A DNA stretch of 36,148 bases from an uncultured Bacilli bacterium (lineage in GTDB: Bacteria > Bacillota_I > Bacilli_A > RF39 > UBA660): contig CANRIE010000108.1 of NCBI GenBank assembly GCA_947630585.1, positions 1 to 36,148 on the forward strand. The letters are read 5' to 3'. The position numbers and the translations under genes were made by a program. A model generated the notes under the pieces. The model did no database searches. It saw only the letters and a program-made list of their open reading frames with translations, and had not been told where the DNA came from. Below are positions 4,960 to 36,148 of this stretch, one piece after another; the first letter of the stretch is position 1; each line of letters begins with the position of its first letter.

Positions 4960-7770
4960 ATGGATAAAATTGTGATTAAAGGGGCTCGCGAAAACAATTT
5001 AAAAAATATTGATTTAGAGTTACCTAAAAATAAATTAATAGTTATGACAGGATTATCAGGAAGTGGAAAAAGTAGTTTAGCTTTTGATACTATTTATGCC
5101 GAAGGAGAAAGACGTTATGTTGAAAGTTTGTCAGCTTATGCTAGACAATTTTTAGGAGGTTCTGAAAAACCTGATGTTGATAGTATTGAAGGATTATCAC
5201 CAAGTATTTCAATTGACCAAAAAACAACAAGTAAGAATCCTCGGTCAACTGTTGGGACTGTTACGGAGATTTATGATTATTTAAGACTTATGTTTGCAAG
5301 AATTGGAGTTCCATATTGTCCTAATCATCATATTCCAATTACTAGTCAATCAGTTGAAGAAATTGTAAATAAAGTTGAAGAGTTTCAAGAAGGCACGAAA
5401 ATAATTATATTAGCTCCCGTTGTTGATAGTGAAAAAGGAACGCATAAAGATACCTTAGAAAATTTAAGACGAGAAGGATACATTAGGGTTCGTATTAATG
5501 GTGAAATGTATGATTTATCAGAAGAAATTAATCTTGAAAAAAATAAAAAAGATAAAATTGATGTTGTTGTAGATAGAATTGTTATTAAAGATGGAGTTAG
5601 AAGTCGTCTTTATGAATCAATTGAAACAGCAACTAATCTTGCAAATGGTAAAGTCTTAATTAATATTGTTGGTGGGGAAGAAATATTATTTTCAACAACT
5701 TATGCTTGTCCTTATTGTAATTATTCAATTCCAACTTTAGAACCAAGAATGTTTAGTTTCAATGCCCCATTTGGAGCTTGTCCCGAATGTAAAGGGTTAG
5801 GAGTAAAATTAAAAATAGATGAGGCGTTAGTAATTCCTGATGCTACTTTAAGTTTAAATAATAAATGTATTAAGACTTTGAATGATGACCAAGATTCAAT
5901 TGAATATAAAAGATTAAAAGCTGTCTGTGATTATTATAAAATTGATATGGATAAACCATTTAATAAATTAAGCAAGAAAAATCAAGATATTATTCTTTAT
6001 GGTTCACCTGATATTTTAACTTTTAATATTACAAGTAGAAGTGGCAATGTAACTAAAAATAAAGATTATTTTGAAGGAGTTATCAATAATCTTGAAAGAC
6101 GTTATATGGAAACATCAAGTGAATGGATCAGAGATTGGCTAGAGCAATACATGATTGAACTTCCTTGTGAAGTTTGTCATGGGGCAAGACTTAATGATAG
6201 TGTTTTAAATGTAAAAGTTCAAGATAAAAATATCTATGAAGTTACTTGCATGTCAATTAAAGAAGCCATAAATTGGTTTAATAATTTAAAATTAAGTGAA
6301 GAACAAAAGAAAATTTCTGAGTTAATTATTAAAGAAATAATAAATAGACTTACGTTTTTAAAAAATGTTGGACTTGAATATTTGACAATGTCTAGAATGA
6401 GTGGAACTTTATCAGGAGGAGAAGCTCAAAGAATTAGATTAGCAACCCAAATTGGATCAAGATTAACGGGAGTTTTATATGTCTTAGATGAACCTAGTAT
6501 TGGACTTCATCAAAAGGATAATGAGAAATTAATAAACTCTTTACTTGAAATGCGTGATTTAGGAAATACTTTAATTGTTGTTGAACATGATACAGATACA
6601 ATGCTTGCAAGTGATTACTTAGTTGATATTGGGCCTGGGGCTGGAGAAGCCGGAGGGTATGTTGTTGCAGCAGGAACTCCAGAAGAAGTTATGAAAAATG
6701 AAAAAAGTATTACAGGTCGTTATTTAAGTGGCAAAGAATGTATCGAGGTTCCTAAAAAGAGACGAAAAGGAAATAGTAAGTTCATTGAAATAAAGGGAGC
6801 TTGTGAAAATAATTTACAAAATATTGATGTTAAAATTCCCCTTGGAACATTTACTTGTGTAACAGGAGTATCAGGAAGTGGCAAGAGTAGTTTAGTAATG
6901 CAAATTTTAGCTAATGCTTGTATGAGTTATATTTATAAATCTAAAGTTAAACCTGGTCGTCATCAAAAAATAGTAGGACTTAATAATTTAGATAAAGTCG
7001 TTATTATAACTCAGAATCCAATTGGAAGAACTCCAAGAAGTAATCCAGCAACTTACACCGGAGTCTTTGACGATATAAGAGATTTATTTACGAATACCAA
7101 GGAAGCCAAGATGCTAGGGTATGGCAAGAATAGATTTTCCTTTAATGTTAAAGGTGGAAGATGCGAGGCTTGCAGGGGAGACGGAGTTAAGAAAATTGAA
7201 ATGCATTTTTTACCAGACGTGTATATTCCTTGTGAAGTATGTCATGGAACACGTTACAATAGTGAAACGTTATCAATCAAATACAAAGATAAAAACATTG
7301 CAGAAGTTCTTGATATGCGAGTAACAGAAGCCTTAGAATTCTTTGAGAATTTTCCAAAGATTAAAAATAAACTTCAAGTTATGGAAGATGTTGGGCTTGG
7401 TTATGTTAAATTAGGTCAAAGTGCAACAACCTTATCTGGAGGAGAGGCAGGCCGAGTTAAACTTTCTAAAGAACTTCAAAAGAAAGCAACTGGTAAAACT
7501 TTATTTATCCTTGATGAACCAACAACAGGACTTCATATGGCAGATATTAAAAGATTACTAGCTATTTTAAATCGGATTGTTGAAAATGGAGATACCGTTT
7601 TAGTAATTGAACATAATCTTGATGTTATAAAATCAGCTGATTATATAATTGATTTAGGACCTGATGGAGGAGAAGGAGGAGGAACAGTTGTTGCAACGGG
7701 AACTCCAGAAGAAGTAGCTCAAGTTAAAGAAAGTTATACAGGAGAATTCTTAAAAAAAATCTTGAATTAA
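4960..7770 (+). CDS. uvrA: Excinuclease ABC subunit A
   Basis: Two Walker A motifs (GLSGSGKSS, GVSGSGKSS), two LSGGE signatures, zinc fingers; TGCTATAAT extended -10 upstream. Confidence 0.99.
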   Translation: MDKIVIKGARENNLKNIDLELPKNKLIVMTGLSGSGKSSLAFDTIYAEGERRYVESLSAYARQFLGGSEKPDVDSIEGLSPSISIDQKTTSKNPRSTVGTVTEIYDYLRLMFARIGVPYCPNHHIPITSQSVEEIVNKVEEFQEGTKIIILAPVVDSEKGTHKDTLENLRREGYIRVRINGEMYDLSEEINLEKNKKDKIDVVVDRIVIKDGVRSRLYESIETATNLANGKVLINIVGGEEILFSTTYACPYCNYSIPTLEPRMFSFNAPFGACPECKGLGVKLKIDEALVIPDATLSLNNKCIKTLNDDQDSIEYKRLKAVCDYYKIDMDKPFNKLSKKNQDIILYGSPDILTFNITSRSGNVTKNKDYFEGVINNLERRYMETSSEWIRDWLEQYMIELPCEVCHGARLNDSVLNVKVQDKNIYEVTCMSIKEAINWFNNLKLSEEQKKISELIIKEIINRLTFLKNVGLEYLTMSRMSGTLSGGEAQRIRLATQIGSRLTGVLYVLDEPSIGLHQKDNEKLINSLLEMRDLGNTLIVVEHDTDTMLASDYLVDIGPGAGEAGGYVVAAGTPEEVMKNEKSITGRYLSGKECIEVPKKRRKGNSKFIEIKGACENNLQNIDVKIPLGTFTCVTGVSGSGKSSLVMQILANACMSYIYKSKVKPGRHQKIVGLNNLDKVVIITQNPIGRTPRSNPATYTGVFDDIRDLFTNTKEAKMLGYGKNRFSFNVKGGRCEACRGDGVKKIEMHFLPDVYIPCEVCHGTRYNSETLSIKYKDKNIAEVLDMRVTEALEFFENFPKIKNKLQVMEDVGLGYVKLGQSATTLSGGEAGRVKLSKELQKKATGKTLFILDEPTTGLHMADIKRLLAILNRIVENGDTVLVIEHNLDVIKSADYIIDLGPDGGEGGGTVVATGTPEEVAQVKESYTGEFLKKILN

Positions 7771-27224: not shown

Positions 27225-28379
27225 ATGGATTTTTGCTTAAGCAATGAGCATAGAAAATATATGGGATTAAAACCATTAAGTGAGAATAGTGAATTAGTTG
27301 TTGTAAAAAGTTCAAGGTCAGATGAAAAAGTATTTGTTTTTATGGAAGACAATAAGATTATAAAAATAATTAAACAAGGTATATCTTATGATTCTTTTCT
27401 TTATCAAGAAAGTGATTGTTCTTATGAAACAGACCCTGAAAGAACAATTATTTATCCTAAAACAAATCGAGGTAAACCTAAAAAGTTTAATTATTCAACT
27501 TTATATTATATTGATTGTGAAAATAATTATTTTTTCATGTATCAACATGATAAATTTAAAAGAGGGTATGTTATAATTGGTAATTATACTAATCAAAGAA
27601 CTTATTATGAAGATAATTTATTATCAGGAATTAATACAATAGAAAAGTTTTATGTTTGGTGTGATAATTTTGTTAAAGAATCAACTAATGAAGATTTAGA
27701 AGAAGTTCAAAAATTTGCTATTGAACCTCGACGTCATGTTAATTACAAAGAAGGAGATTATTTTAGAATTAAAATCGGAAGAAGATTATATACTTATGGT
27801 AGAATTTTGATGGATACTTATAAGAGAGTAAAAAAAGGTATGAAATATATGGGAGGTGGTATTGGAAGATGTTTAATTATTGAAACTTTTCATATTTTAA
27901 CATCAAGATGCGATGTAACTGTTGAAGAATTAAAAAAGTTAAAAGTTTTCCCATCTCAACATATATTTGATAATAATCTTTATTACGGAAGTTATGAAAT
28001 AATAGGCCACGAAGATTTAGAAGGAGACGTGAATTATCCAATTATGTATGGAACTTCATGTCGAGAAAAAATATATTTTCAACGAGGAGATCTTTATAAG
28101 GAAATAGATTATGAACCAGGAAAAGTTATTAAGAGGCCAATAAATGATAAATATTTTGCTTGTTTTGAAAATGGCGGAGTAGGTTTTAAATTAAATAATG
28201 ACCAAGAAACTATTAAGAAATGTATTGAAGAAAACTCTAATAAAAGTTATTGGGAAAAATATTATGGTATTGCATCGGGGGATTTACGTTCTCAAGAAAA
28301 TATTCCGTATTTAAAAGAAATATTGAAACAATTTGATTTAGAGTATTTATTAGATAATATTTCTAAATACAATTATTAA
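27225..28379 (+). CDS. Immunity 26 (Imm26)-type domain protein with an N-terminal extension
   Basis: LSNEHRKYMGL N-terminus; YKEGDYFRIKIGRRLYTYGRILMD and IFDNNLYYGSYEIIGH match the remembered family pattern. Confidence 0.6.
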   Translation: MDFCLSNEHRKYMGLKPLSENSELVVVKSSRSDEKVFVFMEDNKIIKIIKQGISYDSFLYQESDCSYETDPERTIIYPKTNRGKPKKFNYSTLYYIDCENNYFFMYQHDKFKRGYVIIGNYTNQRTYYEDNLLSGINTIEKFYVWCDNFVKESTNEDLEEVQKFAIEPRRHVNYKEGDYFRIKIGRRLYTYGRILMDTYKRVKKGMKYMGGGIGRCLIIETFHILTSRCDVTVEELKKLKVFPSQHIFDNNLYYGSYEIIGHEDLEGDVNYPIMYGTSCREKIYFQRGDLYKEIDYEPGKVIKRPINDKYFACFENGGVGFKLNNDQETIKKCIEENSNKSYWEKYYGIASGDLRSQENIPYLKEILKQFDLEYLLDNISKYNY

Positions 28380-28392
28380 GTTGAGTGATTTT

Positions 28393-29268
28393 ATGGTATT
28401 AATGGTAAGTGGTAGAACGGATATTGTTGCTTTTTATACGGAATGGTTCATGAATCGTTATAAAGAAGGATATGTCGATGTTAGAAATCCTTTTAATCCA
28501 AAACTTGTAAGTAGGATTAATTTTAGTAATGTTGATTTAATTATGTTTTGTACTAAAAATCCTTATCCGATTCTTAAATATTTAAAAGAGATTACTATAC
28601 CTATCTTATTTCATGTAACTTTAACTCCTTATAAAAAAGATATTGAACCGAATGTTATCGATAAAAGTAAAATAATTGAAGGTATAAAAGGATTATCTAA
28701 GATAGTTGGAATTGATAACTTATATATAAGATATGATCCTATTTTTATAAGTCCTAAATATAATCTTGATTATCATAAAAGGGCATTTAGTAAAATGTGT
28801 TCTTTATTAGATGGATATGTGAAACACATAATTGTTTCATTCCTAGATGATTATAAAAATGTAAGGAAAAATAAAAATATTTTAAATTATCAAGAATTGA
28901 GTGAATCCGATTACAAAGAAATAGGAGTTAGTTTTAGCAAGATAGCAAGGGATCATGGAATGACTATTCAAACTTGTTTTGAAGATAATAATTTAGCCCA
29001 ATATGGATTTATTAAGGGAGAATGTTTATCAAAAGAACTTGCTTATAAGTTAACGGGGAAAGTATTTAAAAAATGGAAAGCTAGAAATTGTGGTTGTGTT
29101 GAGATGGTTGATATAGGTGTATATAATTCTTGCAATCATTTATGTAAATATTGCTATGCTAATTATGATGAGGCGAAAGTTAAAAATAATATATTAAATC
29201 ATGACCCAAATTCATCTTTATTAGTTGGAAAATTAGAAAATGATGATATAATAAAAGAAAGAGTTTAA
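28393..29268 (+). CDS. DUF1848 domain protein (Fe-S, radical SAM-related)
   Basis: VSGRTDIVAFY, TKNP, RYDPI, CGC...DIG.YNSCNHLCKYCYAN. Confidence 0.9.
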   Translation: MVLMVSGRTDIVAFYTEWFMNRYKEGYVDVRNPFNPKLVSRINFSNVDLIMFCTKNPYPILKYLKEITIPILFHVTLTPYKKDIEPNVIDKSKIIEGIKGLSKIVGIDNLYIRYDPIFISPKYNLDYHKRAFSKMCSLLDGYVKHIIVSFLDDYKNVRKNKNILNYQELSESDYKEIGVSFSKIARDHGMTIQTCFEDNNLAQYGFIKGECLSKELAYKLTGKVFKKWKARNCGCVEMVDIGVYNSCNHLCKYCYANYDEAKVKNNILNHDPNSSLLVGKLENDDIIKERV

Positions 29269-29283
29269 ATGAAAGGATTAAAT

Positions 29284-29640
29284 ATGAATGAAATTAAATT
29301 GATTGTTAATAATCATGAATTAAAAGTTAAATTAGAAGACAATAAGGCAAGTAGGGAGTTTTATAAGATACTTGAAAATAGAGAGATTGAAGTGCATGCT
29401 CATGATTATGGAAAGTTCGAGAAAGTTGGGGATTTAGGTTTTACTCTACCAACAAGTGATACTAAAATTACTACGAAGCCAGGTGACATAATTCTTTATC
29501 ATGGAAATGAGATTACAGTTTATTATGATGAAAATACGTGGGAATTTACAAAACTTGGGGAAATAGAGGATATAACCCAAGATAAATTAAAAAGAATATT
29601 AGGGTGCGATGATGTTATGCTAACATTTAAAGGTAAATAA
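29284..29640 (+). CDS. Cyclophilin-like fold protein
   Basis: LEDNKASREF, DYGKFEKVGDLGFTLP, PGDIILYHGNEITVYY, FTKLG. Confidence 0.8.
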   Translation: MNEIKLIVNNHELKVKLEDNKASREFYKILENREIEVHAHDYGKFEKVGDLGFTLPTSDTKITTKPGDIILYHGNEITVYYDENTWEFTKLGEIEDITQDKLKRILGCDDVMLTFKGK

Positions 29641-29641
29641 T

Positions 29642-30313
29642 ATGAAAAAGAAGTATTATTTATTTGAAATGAAGGGGGCGTTTCTCCAAATACTATCTAT
29701 AGTTATTTTAATTATAATGGGACTCTTAACATTTCTAATTTATAAACCAATTAATGTAAGTGATATTGATTTTATTATTATCTTTTTAATAATGATACCA
29801 TATTTAGTTGTTCATGAAATATTACATAGTATCTCGTATGTTTTAAATGGTGCTAAGTTTAAAAATGTAACTTATGGTGTTCATCTTGAAAAAGGAGTTT
29901 TATGTTGTTTATGTAAACAAAATATTAGTAAAAGAAATATTTTAATATCTTTAATAACACCTTTTGTCGTAATTGGAGTTATTACTTATATAATTGGATT
30001 AATTACTAGTAACTTTGTTTTAATAGTTTTATCAGTTATAAATATAGCTGGTTGTAGTGGTGATTTAGTTATGTTTTTCGATTTTTTAAGGCTTAAAGAT
30101 TTTGAATACTCTGAGTATGATAATCCAATGGCTTTTGGTATATATTCGAAAAAAGATTTAAGTAAGAAAAAGATGTTAGGACTTAAGTTTATTGAAACTA
30201 AAGATAAATTAGAAATTAAAGATTTAAAGAAAGTTACCGTTAGTAAATTTAGTATTATCGTTTTAATTATGTATTTTGTGCTTGGAATAATTAATATAGT
30301 TTTATATATATAA
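29642..30313 (+). CDS. DUF3267 family membrane metalloprotease-like protein
   Basis: HEILH (HExxH), LITPFVV, NIAGCSGD. Confidence 0.8.
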   Translation: MKKKYYLFEMKGAFLQILSIVILIIMGLLTFLIYKPINVSDIDFIIIFLIMIPYLVVHEILHSISYVLNGAKFKNVTYGVHLEKGVLCCLCKQNISKRNILISLITPFVVIGVITYIIGLITSNFVLIVLSVINIAGCSGDLVMFFDFLRLKDFEYSEYDNPMAFGIYSKKDLSKKKMLGLKFIETKDKLEIKDLKKVTVSKFSIIVLIMYFVLGIINIVLYI

Positions 30314-30378
30314 ACCCTTGAGATATTTCCTGTTAAAAATTTAAAAATATAGTATAGTGGTATCCGAAGGGAGAGATT

Positions 30379-31233
30379 ATGAAGCAAGATAAAATTGGAA
30401 AATTTATAGCTGATGCAAGAAAAAAGAAAAAAATGACGCAGGCAATGTTAGCTGAAAAATTAGGAGTATCAGATAGGACAATTGGAAATTGGGAGAATGG
30501 CAGGAATATGCCTGATTTATCATTATTTAAGCCACTATGTGAATGTTTAGATATTTCAATTTATGAATTATTAAATGGAGAAAAAATATCTGATGATAAT
30601 GATATTAAGAAAGAAGAAGCTATTTACAAAACAATTGACTATACTAAAAAGACAATAACTCATGAAAAACGAATTTTTAAAACAATTTTAGTAACAATAA
30701 TTATTCTTGTAGGAACATTAATAACCTTATTTCTAATTGACATTAATAGAATGAGAAATAATAAACCTGTTTTCTTTAGTACTTGGGGTTATTTATACAC
30801 ACCAGCTATAAATTTAGATAGTGCAAAAATTGAAAATACAATTAAAAATTACTTAATTGAAGAAGCTGAAGAAGGTAAGCACCATGATAATGAAAAAGCT
30901 TTTGTTAGTATGAAAACTTATTTAATAAGGGAACAAAAAGATAAATATTATCTTTATACTTGGGTTTTAGAAAATAGTTATTACGTGGAAAACTCGGAAA
31001 TTAAATTAGATTCAGGATATTCAATGCCATTTAAGTTTGAGGTTATGAAAAAAGATGATGAATTTATAGTAACTAATAAATTGTTTCCAAGAGATGGTAG
31101 TTATTATAAAACTGATATGAAAAAAATATTTCCAAATGATGTTTTAAAAGAGATGGATAATTTTTATTATGATGGTACAGAAGAGGAATTAAAGACTGAT
31201 ATTGATAATCAAATTAAGTTATATTTTCATTAA
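30379..31233 (+). CDS. XRE-family HTH protein with a TM helix and an extracellular domain
   Basis: IGKFIADARKKKKMTQAMLAEKLGVSDRTIGNWENGRNMPD; TM ILVTIIILVGTLITLFLI. Confidence 0.85.
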   Translation: MKQDKIGKFIADARKKKKMTQAMLAEKLGVSDRTIGNWENGRNMPDLSLFKPLCECLDISIYELLNGEKISDDNDIKKEEAIYKTIDYTKKTITHEKRIFKTILVTIIILVGTLITLFLIDINRMRNNKPVFFSTWGYLYTPAINLDSAKIENTIKNYLIEEAEEGKHHDNEKAFVSMKTYLIREQKDKYYLYTWVLENSYYVENSEIKLDSGYSMPFKFEVMKKDDEFIVTNKLFPRDGSYYKTDMKKIFPNDVLKEMDNFYYDGTEEELKTDIDNQIKLYFH

Positions 31234-34280: not shown

Positions 34281-34343
34281 TTAATCAAAACCTTAATCAA
34301 ATTTAATCAAATAGTTTCAAAATTTTTACTTTGGTAGTATAAT
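34281..34343 (+). promoter_or_regulatory. Promoter with three TTAATCAAA direct repeats
   Basis: TTAATCAAA at 34281, 34293 and 34303; weak -35 TTTCAA (34315)-N17-TATAAT (34338). Confidence 0.5.
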
Positions 34344-34380
34344 AATTAATGAAACAAAACATGTGAAAGTGGGTGAAATA

Positions 34381-35460
34381 ATGAAAATTAATTGTGATGG
34401 TATTATTCATAATCCACTTGGAGGAGCCTCATATATGTTTGAAAAAGAAATAATACCATATATTTTAAGGCAATATACAAAAAATATAATAAAAATTAGT
34501 GTTGGTGCTCAACCTAATTCTTCACCACATTTTGGTACCTTAGAAACAATAGCACTATCCTTTGGATTAGCATCAAATATTATGAAATATGATAAAAACA
34601 AGAAAGTTATAATTTTATATGAGGTAATTGATTCAGCACCAAGTGAAACAACAATAATAAATGGAATAAAATACCAAAAAAGTTTAAAATATACTGGAAA
34701 AATAAATGAATTTTTTAATGAATATTTAGAAATTTTAAATTATTATAAAAGTTTAACTGGTATTGATTATGAGATAAGGTATCAAAAGGAGTTTAATAGT
34801 CAACCTGAAATATCTAATATTATTAAAAAAATCATTAAAAATAAAGAATATATTAGTCCACGACTTGATCCGAAATATAATAAAATAAGAATTAGAATGC
34901 CTTGCCCAAAATGTGGACTAACTGATAAAAATAGTATTTTAAACAAATATGAAAATAATAGGATAATATTTAATTGTCCTATACATGGCGAGTATTATGC
35001 AAATTTGGATAAAGACACATCTATGCTAGAATATAATTCTCCATACCGAAATTTAATTAGATGTATATATTATACATTAGTTAACAATAATTCCAATTAC
35101 AATTATCAAATTCTTAGAGTAACAGGAAGTGATTATGCAGGATTTTATCAAGAGGAAATGAGATATAAATTGGCTTCTTATTTAGGATATCCTGCACATA
35201 CATTATCAATGATATTTTATGCACCACTTGTATTAGACTGGTCAGGAGCAAAAATGTCAAAATCTTTGTATGTTAAGGAAGGAGCTTATTCAGATATTCC
35301 AGCTGCTTTTATTAATTATAAATATTTAAAAAAAGCATATGGATTAGAAGGTTTAAAAAAATTGTATGATATTATTTGTAATTGGTTTGAAAAACCTTAT
35401 ATGCTTTTTAGACATTATACAATTTATTATTTTATAAAGGAGTTTGAAGAAAATGAATAA
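34381..35460 (+). CDS. Class I lysyl-tRNA synthetase-like protein, catalytic domain only
   Basis: HIGH-like PNSSPHFGT, Zn-ribbon CPKCG...CPIHG, GSDY, KMSKS; ends about 60 aa after KMSKS with no room for a full anticodon-binding domain. Confidence 0.7.
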   Translation: MKINCDGIIHNPLGGASYMFEKEIIPYILRQYTKNIIKISVGAQPNSSPHFGTLETIALSFGLASNIMKYDKNKKVIILYEVIDSAPSETTIINGIKYQKSLKYTGKINEFFNEYLEILNYYKSLTGIDYEIRYQKEFNSQPEISNIIKKIIKNKEYISPRLDPKYNKIRIRMPCPKCGLTDKNSILNKYENNRIIFNCPIHGEYYANLDKDTSMLEYNSPYRNLIRCIYYTLVNNNSNYNYQILRVTGSDYAGFYQEEMRYKLASYLGYPAHTLSMIFYAPLVLDWSGAKMSKSLYVKEGAYSDIPAAFINYKYLKKAYGLEGLKKLYDIICNWFEKPYMLFRHYTIYYFIKEFEENE

Positions 35461-35872
35461 TGCAATTTTTGTTAGTATTAATCCTATATCAATAGATAAG
35501 ATTGAAAAGAAAATTAAAACATATGAATTTAGAAATTATATTCCTAAAAAAAAATTTAATAAACTTTATGTGTATGTTACTTCTCCAATTTGTGAATTAA
35601 AATACATAATACAAATAGCAAATATAATTAGTACACCTCAAAAAATAGAAATTGGAGGAGATGGGAATGAATTGTTCAATGATGGAAAGAAATCAAAATA
35701 CGCATATCAAATTAGTAAAGTTTATAAATTAACTATTCCAATTAAATTATCTTCTTTAAAAGAAAAATTTAATTTTACTCCTCCACAAAGTTATGCATAC
35801 GATGAAAAATATCATGATCTTTCAATTTTTTTGGCTAAGAGTGAAAAAAAATTAATATGGGAAAGACAATAA
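35453..35872 (+). CDS. ASCH (PUA-like) domain protein
   Basis: SINPISIDKIEKKIKTYEFR (K..E.R), YVYVTSP, PPQSY; SD AAGGAG; 8-nt overlap (ATGAATAA) with the upstream gene. Confidence 0.8.
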   Translation: MNNAIFVSINPISIDKIEKKIKTYEFRNYIPKKKFNKLYVYVTSPICELKYIIQIANIISTPQKIEIGGDGNELFNDGKKSKYAYQISKVYKLTIPIKLSSLKEKFNFTPPQSYAYDEKYHDLSIFLAKSEKKLIWERQ

Positions 35873-36148
35873 TTTATAATTAAAATTATTATAATAATAA
35901 AATATACTTTTTTTTAGAAAAGCTGAATAATTCAATTCAATCTAAAATAATTGCTATTGGAAAAAGATGATGTTGCAAGTAATAGTATGAGTGATGCTAT
36001 GCTTCTGATGTAAATGAGGAATTTTGAAAAATTAGTCGGGTAATAATCCTGACAGCGAAAATATGCTAAAATTTTAACAAATCAGATTAGTAATAAGCGT
36101 GTTAATACGCTAATTTAGCCATTTTTTGCAAAAAAAATAAATACATAT

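Follow-up and report, generated by a model that had tools for sequence, protein, structure and literature searches.

A LysRS-like ligase paired with an ASCH protein in an uncultured Bacilli bacterium: a possible aminoacyl ligase for cytosine

What use does a bacterium have for a protein that resembles a lysyl-tRNA synthetase, stops before the anticodon-binding domain, and is not the lysyl-tRNA synthetase of the cell? The question is raised by two genes of an uncultured Bacilli bacterium (RF39; UBA660) whose genome assembly, GCA_947630585.1, holds 1.25 Mb and is 83% complete. The DNA analyzed is the entire contig CANRIE010000108.1 (C108; 36,148 nucleotides, nt) and is called the window here. 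Its last 1.8 kb holds two overlapping plus-strand genes downstream of nrdD and nrdG. The first encodes a ligase of the class I aminoacyl-tRNA synthetase (aaRS) type that is most like class I lysyl-tRNA synthetase (LysRS-I). The second encodes a small ASCH protein, ASCH-A. It is tentatively proposed, with somewhat less than even confidence, that the two are the subunits of an aminoacyl ligase in which ASCH-A holds a cytosine base or cytosine nucleoside as the acceptor.

The ligase and its ASCH partner

The ligase has 359 amino acids (aa). It possesses an HFGT motif, a zinc ribbon-like Cys3His knuckle, and a KMSKS motif, and the residues H50, G52, T53, C175, C178, C199, K291, S293, and K294 are invariant in 22 ligase homologues. 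The LysRS-I family model, PF01921, matches the window ligase at E 0.061 and 12.7 bits, below its cut-off of 27. It weakly matches 15 of the 22 homologues, with a best E of 3.6e-6. NCBIfam gives no match to the ligase, and PF05636 (TmcAL) gives none at E up to 1. A profile of the ligase family found just two chance coiled-coil matches among the PDB sequences.

The AlphaFold2 model of the ligase has a predicted local distance difference test score (pLDDT) of 85.7, with residues 292-299 of the KMSKS loop below 50. In a Foldseek search with this model, LysRS-I (1irx) ranks first (E 6.7e-9). Residues 19-359 of the model align to residues 3-331 of the 508-residue 1irx_B with a Z of 18.7, a root-mean-square deviation of 3.8, 279 aligned residues, and 13% identity. 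The next structural matches are BshC (Z 17.0), ArgRS, GluRS, and CysRS (about 13), MshC (12.5), and GluQRS (11.6), so that LysRS-I and BshC lead the other class I synthetases, MshC, and GluQRS by about 4 Z. The anticodon-binding domain is absent, the end of the ligase coinciding with residue 331 of 1irx. No ligase-family forms of at least 630 aa were found, and the longer forms bear an ASCH domain, an AdoMet_dc domain, or a second ligase copy in place of the anticodon-binding domain. According to the model, the ligase is the LysRS-I-like catalytic part, stopping before that domain. The motifs, the likeness to LysRS-I, and the truncation after the catalytic fold had all been described in the original prediction, which was made from the DNA sequence alone, and the homologues and the structure search bear them out.

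The ligase is not the housekeeping enzyme. A class II lysS is encoded elsewhere in the genome, on contig C2 (532 bits, cut-off 427.6). A PF01921 scan of the same genome gave nothing above cut-off. Identity with the housekeeping LysRS was rejected on both grounds. The genome also encodes tilS and, on contig C89, a separate tmcAL (382 bits). A role as a substitute for TilS or TmcAL was rejected because both are encoded. LysRS-I is thus the best fold match and shares the HIGH-type and KMSKS motifs, but the ligase differs from it in the missing domain, in its score under PF01921, and in not serving as the LysRS of the cell. The ASCH partner is also specific to the window ligase family.

The ASCH-A protein has no Pfam match in the window form. 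The ASCH model, PF04266, weakly matches 5 of 25 ASCH-A homologues, the best at E 0.0044, below the gathering threshold. The AlphaFold2 model of ASCH-A has a pLDDT of 95.7, and Foldseek places ZmASCH (5y6b/5guq) first (E about 2e-7, TM 0.65), followed by the ASCH domain of TRIP4. The sequence profile of ASCH-A also finds ZmASCH in the PDB (E 2e-7), and the two proteins are about 20-23% identical. In the ASCH octapeptide, K22, E25, and R27 are invariant in the 25 homologues. The consensus octapeptide begins with G, that of the window protein with K. By modelled fold, motif, and PDB profile match, ASCH-A is an ASCH-fold protein with a PUA-like beta-barrel, as the original prediction had assigned it.

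ZmASCH (5guq, 5gus, 5y6b) is the closest solved relative of ASCH-A, and the two have the GKER-type octapeptide and a PPQS motif in common. A HMMER alignment sets the two PPQS motifs opposite each other. The assignment of the Ser in ASCH-A to Ser128 of ZmASCH rests on the residue count in this alignment. Mutation of Ser128, which lies in the cleft, reduces the binding of nucleic acids (PMC5615036). Unlike ASCH-A, ZmASCH stands alone. It is described as an RNase for single-stranded RNA, and no ligase partner of it is known.

A second source (10.64898/2026.02.27.708502) links the ASCH fold to acylated cytidine. In it, 19 of 19 ASCH proteins assayed act on N4-acetylcytidine (ac4C), and proteins such as YqfB remove N4-acyl groups from cytidine. 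The Lys and Glu of the octapeptide are given as the catalytic dyad of the GKER-type deacetylases. Both residues required by these deacetylases are invariant in ASCH-A.

These properties of ASCH-A also bring in a different acceptor. The pair could be an RNA-directed enzyme, similar to GluQRS or TmcAL, that acylates or aminoacylates cytidine or another nucleoside in tRNA or rRNA, with ASCH-A binding the RNA. It could possibly confer resistance to nucleoside antibiotics that target the ribosome, by modifying that target. This explanation is doubtful. ASCH-A is of the ZmASCH subtype, which binds single-stranded RNA, and is basic; GluQRS is a structural neighbour of the ligase; and TmcAL, which acetylates N4 of C34 in tRNA, provides a precedent (10.64898/2026.02.27.708502). 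On the other hand, the genome already encodes tilS and tmcAL, and the second-best structural match, BshC, is a small-molecule ligase.

Pairing, spread, and further ASCH genes

The pairing of the ligase with ASCH-A is real. A total of 59 ligase loci were taken from species-representative genomes, and ASCH-A was sought in them by tblastn. It was found in 53, being immediately downstream on the strand of the ligase in 49 loci, about 2 kb downstream in three (L030, L033, and L037), and directly upstream in one (L039). Among the six loci without ASCH-A, L049 stops at a contig edge and L059 is a fragment of 38 residues only, while L018, L044, L048, and L057 do seem to lack it. The distance matrices of the ligase and ASCH-A have a Mantel r of 0.91 over 37 loci, and none of 999 permutations was as high. 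This indicates co-inheritance of the two proteins, and shared descent by itself could yield such a correlation. The pairing noted at this locus is conserved well beyond it.

The two proteins also occur as one. The locus L022 has a single open reading frame (ORF) of 501 aa in which ASCH-A follows the ligase as a C-terminal domain. Further fusions of 500-510 aa make up 4 of the 120 protein clusters listed (P0064, P0067, P0070, and P0073), and P0067 has 54% identity to ASCH-A over its C-terminal part. A physical association of the separate proteins is suggested by these fusions and by the overlap of the genes. The original prediction offered, as one of two options, that ASCH acts in trans as the RNA-recognition subunit. 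The fused domain sits C-terminally at the place of the anticodon-binding domain. A recognition subunit fits this position better than a writer-eraser pair does. The RNA part of the option is not retained as the favoured acceptor, a cytosine small molecule being preferred, although the position of the fused domain also agrees with the RNA-directed explanation.

The layout of the pair in the window is summarized in Table 1. The ATG of ASCH-A lies inside the ligase gene, and the overlap of 8 nt is as first described. Longer ORFs are available for both genes. The ligase has an alternative in-frame GTG start (34363..35460, plus strand, 365 aa), and ASCH-A has a TTG start (35444..35872, plus strand, 142 aa). 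Homologues of both proteins begin at the ATGs. In L016, L020, L024, L014, and others, the ligase ORF extends into ASCH-A by about 50 nt more, in another frame, which gives a product of 374 aa and a longer overlap.

The gap between nrdG and the ligase is 156 nt, or 138 nt if GTG 34363 is the start. It had been thought to hold a terminator of nrdG and a promoter of the pair's own. A scan that covered the gap found no terminator-like site. Promoter-like sites number 16, and shuffled sequences give 19.5 +/- 4.8, so that the site in the gap is of a kind no commoner than in shuffles. The suggestion of a separate promoter is not upheld. An Rfam scan of the whole window found no family. Upstream of nrdD, at 27225-31233, the window holds genes for an Imm26-domain protein, a DUF1848 protein, a cyclophilin-like protein, a putative DUF3267 zincin peptidase, and an XRE-type helix-turn-helix (HTH) protein.

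Table 1. Positions of the gene pair, its motifs, and the flanking features in the window
Feature	Position	Strand	Remarks
LysRS-I-like ligase gene	34381..35460	+	359 aa; ATG start, TAA at 35458-35460; class I aaRS catalytic core
ASCH-A gene, ZmASCH subtype	35453..35872	+	139 aa; ATG start, TAA at 35870-35872
Promoter-like site TTCAAA-16-TATAAT	34316..34343	+	possible; 10/12 positions match; in the gap after nrdG
PHFGT, HIGH-type nucleotide-binding motif	34525..34539	+	ligase residues 49-53
CPKCG ... CPIHG, Cys3His zinc knuckle inserted in the Rossmann fold	34903..34989	+	CPKCG, residues 175-179 (34903-34917); CPIHG, residues 199-203 (34975-34989); zinc binding predicted from the pattern
KMSKS motif	35251..35265	+	ligase residues 291-295
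ASCH octapeptide KIKTYEFR (family consensus GxKNYEFR)	35510..35533	+	in ASCH-A
PPQSYAY motif, PPQS common with ZmASCH	35780..35800	+	in ASCH-A; from the HMMER alignment
Contig tail	35873..36148		without the B1-B2 fusion gene found here in the closest relatives

The pair is accessory and mobile, and its distribution is patchy. Of 151 genomes of the same order, 7 were found to have the ligase, and none of the three other genomes of the genus did. The family comprises 476 representatives (50% identity) at E 0.001 or better. It ranges over uncultured gut Bacilli and Clostridia, bacteria of candidate phyla (WWE3, Saccharibacteria, and Peribacteria), and DPANN-type archaea, and the ligase pair is also carried by mobilizable plasmids. 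The flanks of the window pair match none of the 59 loci, including L001, whose ligase is 94% identical. The genes nrdD and nrdG and the HTH gene are near the ligase in 0 of 59 loci. A functional link to nrdDG was therefore rejected, and the adjacency appears to be incidental. In a gene tree of 37 ligases the taxon labels are intermixed; the bin labels are unreliable, and nothing firm follows from the tree. Spread of this patchy, mobile kind, with unrelated flanks, weighs against the RNA-directed explanation.

Clustering of the neighbouring genes reveals two further small ASCH genes, B1 (about 118 aa) and B2 (about 115 aa). B1 lies by the pair in 26 loci, B2 in 20, and both in 8; at least one is present in 38 of the 59. 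PF04266 is passed by B2 proteins and by the B2 portion of a B1-B2 fusion. Four stand-alone B1 proteins (from L016, L020, L024, and L014) were compared with Pfam and gave no match. When the profiles of ASCH-A and the B1-B2 protein were compared, the alignment was confined to the octapeptide region (probability 3.7%). By this comparison, ASCH-A and B1/B2 are separate ASCH subfamilies. In the closest relatives of the window pair (L001, L002, and L025), a B1-B2 fusion begins at the ASCH-A stop codon. The window diverges from them exactly at that codon; the B1-B2 gene is missing, and the contig tail has no blastn match in the 59 loci. A stand-alone B2-type ASCH gene is found elsewhere in the genome, on the minus strand of contig C94 (L071) at 5264-5647. 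It encodes 127 aa, matches PF04266 at 49 bits, shares 44% identity with the B2 half of the L001 fusion, and lies away from the ligase.

If an "eraser" of the ligase product exists, B1 and B2 are better candidates for it than ASCH-A. This bears on the other option of the original prediction, a toxin-antitoxin or anti-phage system of writer and eraser. In such a system, the ligase would place an acyl mark on a nucleobase of host or phage nucleic acid, and an ASCH protein would reverse or sense the mark. The overlapping genes, the mobile and variable location, the possible erasers nearby in 38 loci, and the HicB, HipA, Abi_2, and integrase genes that adjoin the pair in some loci are all consistent with it. 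In addition, ASCH-A matches the PADLOC candidate PDC-M11B (E 1.3e-11, or 4.5e-15 for the fused form). The ligase, however, matches no PADLOC model, and PDC-M11 is named only in lists in the literature found, as far as those sources were available. Nothing was found in the IMG/VR viral contigs with the patterns used, nor in 50,697 phage records. A toxin stably fused to its own eraser would be futile, and the window lacks B1 and B2 by the pair yet keeps an intact ligase. The defence role is very unlikely, and this part of the original prediction is not supported in the form given.

Gene neighborhoods and the acceptor

As judged from gene content, the informative contexts are biosynthetic. In four of the 59 loci (L030, L033, and L037 from bins of Bacilli and Erysipelotrichaceae, and L027 from Clostridia) the pair lies in one operon with nucleoside-type genes. 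A small protein of these operons has as its best PDB matches the CMP N-glycosidase 4jen (E 3e-11), BlsM (2e-6), and MilB (3e-6). Another matches TIGR04467, cytosylglucuronate (CGA) synthase, at E 1.4e-48 and 166 bits. The same operons possess DegT aminotransferases, a MazG-like pyrophosphatase (MazG-like genes occur in five loci), and an APH(3')-like kinase. In L030, L033, and L037, a gene for an ABC-F ribosomal-protection protein (435 bits, cut-off 380) lies between the ligase and ASCH-A. The synthesis of blasticidin, mildiomycin, and gougerotin opens with the hydrolysis of CMP to cytosine, followed by coupling to UDP-glucuronate.

The operons at L030:3489-11524 (L033 and L037 are alike) and L027:3324-9483 resemble a cluster for a cytosyl-hexuronate peptidyl-nucleoside antibiotic. 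The L030-type operon includes a protein of 699 aa whose C-terminal half matches CGA synthase. The L027 operon has a PHP-domain protein and a shorter glycosyltransferase.

Two mobilizable plasmids of Macrococcus/Macrococcoides carry an operon of ATP-grasp, ATP-grasp, ligase, and ASCH-A genes, with an identity of 40% and the same 8-nt overlap. On both plasmids, a major facilitator superfamily (MFS) transporter and an HTH regulator are divergent, and an integrase follows the operon. The loci are L072 (CP124599.1, 1837-8048) in Macrococcus sp. CCM 2573 and L073 (NZ_CP079986.1, 4266-10477) in Macrococcoides bohemicum. Their operon proteins are annotated merely as ATP-grasp or hypothetical.

A number of more distant homologues have other neighbours. 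The Pantoea plasmid locus L074 (NZ_CP045242.1, 5174-8954) encodes a ligase homologue of 28.5% identity with no ASCH gene. An S-adenosylmethionine (SAM) methyltransferase stands on one side of it, and a LOG-family protein (PF03641), an EamA exporter, and a Ham1 NTP pyrophosphatase stand on the other. The theme of an NTP pyrophosphatase, a nucleotide N-glycosidase-type protein, and a ligase thus recurs with different families. On a Streptomyces plasmid, a distant homologue adjoins an AAA_28 NTPase and a PF04266 ASCH gene. P0258 (489 aa) is a ligase homologue with a C-terminal domain of the AdoMet-decarboxylase type (PF02675), and a separate PF02675-family gene follows an ASCH-A-like gene at L055:9483-9803 (Patescibacteria). 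A Woesearchaeota locus, L057:6812-12172, has a distant homologue (25% identity), two radical-SAM/SPASM genes, a DegT gene, and a 412-aa protein with a CysRS catalytic domain; no ASCH gene was found at the locus.

Tandem ligase copies or long Ser/Pro-rich N-terminal extensions are present in P0173, P0175, and P0178 (861-981 aa), and in P0177, P0200, P0204, and P0213. By composition these long forms look eukaryotic, perhaps fungal. Kinship with fungal arginine-cyclodipeptide synthases was considered and dropped; the key residues of PMC11610942 were not seen by eye in the family sequences printed, and no motif search was made.

The neighbours suggest another use of the same chemistry. A stand-alone pair could aminoacylate an imported cytosine-nucleoside antibiotic, having spread from producers as a self-resistance cassette. 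Aminoacylation is known as self-protection in leucyl-blasticidin S. The pair is found in producer-like operons, beside the ABC-F gene, yet is alone in many non-producers, and it sits on mobilizable plasmids. Resistance-type genes lie near several loci, among them the APH(3')-like kinase, GNATs (L031, L041, L054, and L056), and a glyoxalase/bleomycin-resistance-type protein (L041). However, these genes are few and differ between loci, as do the HicB, HipA, Abi_2, and integrase genes. Two ATP-grasp ligases and an exporter in the Macrococcus plasmid operon suggest synthesis and not inactivation. A resistance enzyme is distinctly unlikely, though less so than a defence system.

The ABC-F gene also counts for the RNA-directed explanation, since it encodes a ribosomal-protection protein between the two genes. 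The recurring neighbours point the other way. They are small-molecule enzymes, namely the CMP N-glycosidase-like protein, the glycosyltransferase, the ATP-grasp ligases, and the exporters.

A cytosine acceptor is therefore tentatively preferred, and the mechanism can be set out as follows. The two genes would encode two parts of one accessory enzyme. In the LysRS-I-derived core, PHFGT and KMSKS would bind ATP, and the core would convert a carboxylate to the acyl-adenylate; an amino acid is the most likely carboxylate. ASCH-A would take the place of the lost anticodon-binding domain, where it is fused in some organisms, and hold the acceptor. This acceptor would most likely be a small molecule, either the cytosine base or a cytosine nucleoside. 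The product would be an aminoacyl-cytosine or aminoacyl-cytosine-nucleoside conjugate, possibly with the linkage at N4, a position known to be read by ASCH proteins. Certain genomes would have the pair work within operons that resemble peptidyl-nucleoside antibiotic pathways. A stand-alone pair, as in the window, may use cellular cytosine or cytidine to form a simple conjugate, or may modify an imported nucleoside antibiotic.

Three lines of evidence favour this acceptor. The recurring partners release and process cytosine. The nearest folds outside the synthetases are the ligases of the BshC and MshC type. In addition, ASCH-A keeps the Lys-Glu dyad reported to act on N4-acylcytidine (10.64898/2026.02.27.708502).

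A number of points weigh against this reading. The biosynthetic neighbours are limited to 4 of the 59 loci and three plasmids, and the window pair stands alone. Neither a CGA synthase gene nor a CMP-glycosidase-like one was found in the genome, which is 83% complete. The TIGR04467 match of 166 bits is below the NCBIfam cut-off of 300. The nucleoside-type operons also hold FemAB-like proteins (a weak Pfam match and an Atlas lead). Proteins of this kind use aminoacyl-tRNA, and a link to tRNA is hence possible. ASCH-A has an isoelectric point (pI) of 9.5, the median in 48 homologues being 9.1, and it resembles the ASCH proteins that bind nucleic acids. Single-stranded RNA and DNA are bound by ZmASCH, which also cleaves RNA (PMC5615036) and is reported to be inactive on the free ac4C nucleoside (10.64898/2026.02.27.708502). 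Enzymatic activity is predicted for every member of the family; the adenylation, the kind of acid, the acceptor, the acylated position, and the role are all deduced from the genes and models. The RNA, resistance, and defence explanations keep some weight because ZmASCH cuts RNA, ASCH-A is basic, and the informative contexts are few.

A bolder form of the cytosine proposal can be put forward, and is rather unlikely. The pair might be a new kind of nucleobase aminoacyl-transferase in which an ASCH "eraser" domain has been reversed into an acceptor site, with N4-aminoacyl-cytosine as its product. This would be the founding step of an unrecognized family of cytosine-derived natural products, with gut Firmicutes, Macrococcus plasmids, and CPR (candidate phyla radiation) and DPANN organisms as hosts. 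B1 and B2 would be the matching hydrolases, for immunity or recycling.

Known systems and the meaning of the pair

The ligase can be likened to the truncated synthetase paralogues GluQRS, MshC, BshC, and TmcAL, and by family models it appears to belong to none of them. BshC and MshC join cysteine to an amino sugar, and not to tRNA, in bacillithiol and mycothiol synthesis. The structures 4wbd (BshC) and 3c8z (MshC) have class I aaRS-like cores similar to that of the ligase, at fold level only. Their amino-sugar chemistry fits the DegT and glycosyltransferase neighbours of the pair. In Pfam and NCBIfam, the ligase matches neither of these families. BshC has 540 residues with extra domains, and neither enzyme has an ASCH partner.

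The architecture has its classic precedent in GluQRS (YadB; 4a91), a truncated class I synthetase that lacks the anticodon-binding domain and aminoacylates a modified base. It differs in that it derives from GluRS, acts alone on tRNA-Asp (queuosine), has no ASCH partner, and is a lower fold match. TmcAL is an aaRS-like enzyme that acetylates cytidine via an acyl-adenylate. Together with the ASCH deacetylases, it provides the chemical precedent of an aaRS-like core and an ASCH domain that both act on the N4 of cytosine (10.64898/2026.02.27.708502). In contrast to the window pair, TmcAL and YqfB are neither paired nor fused, as far as seen, and PF05636 does not match the ligase.

AcmF and SbzA are synthetase-derived and put an amino acid on a natural product of the nucleoside type (PMC12945691). 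AcmF is AlaRS-like (class II) and SbzA is IleRS-like. Unlike the proposed ligase, both use ready-made aminoacyl-tRNA, and neither is known to have an ASCH partner. No description of the ligase-ASCH pair was found in the literature covered, with subscription journals and supplementary files outside that coverage. New here are three things: operons of the cytosine-nucleoside type, plasmid operons with ATP-grasp genes in cultured strains, and the further ASCH genes B1 and B2.

The truncated synthetase paralogues GluQRS, MshC, BshC, EpmA, and TmcAL have each revealed new chemistry. The present ligase family is well conserved, there is no family model that it passes, and the fold of its partner has now been connected with N4-acylcytidine. 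If the proposal is true, the pair would represent a new route to conjugates of amino acids and nucleobases. Its two genes would also serve as markers by which hidden nucleoside-antibiotic clusters could be recognized in uncultured bacteria of the gut. The same operon is present on small plasmids of cultured Macrococcus strains, and this would make it a readily testable system.

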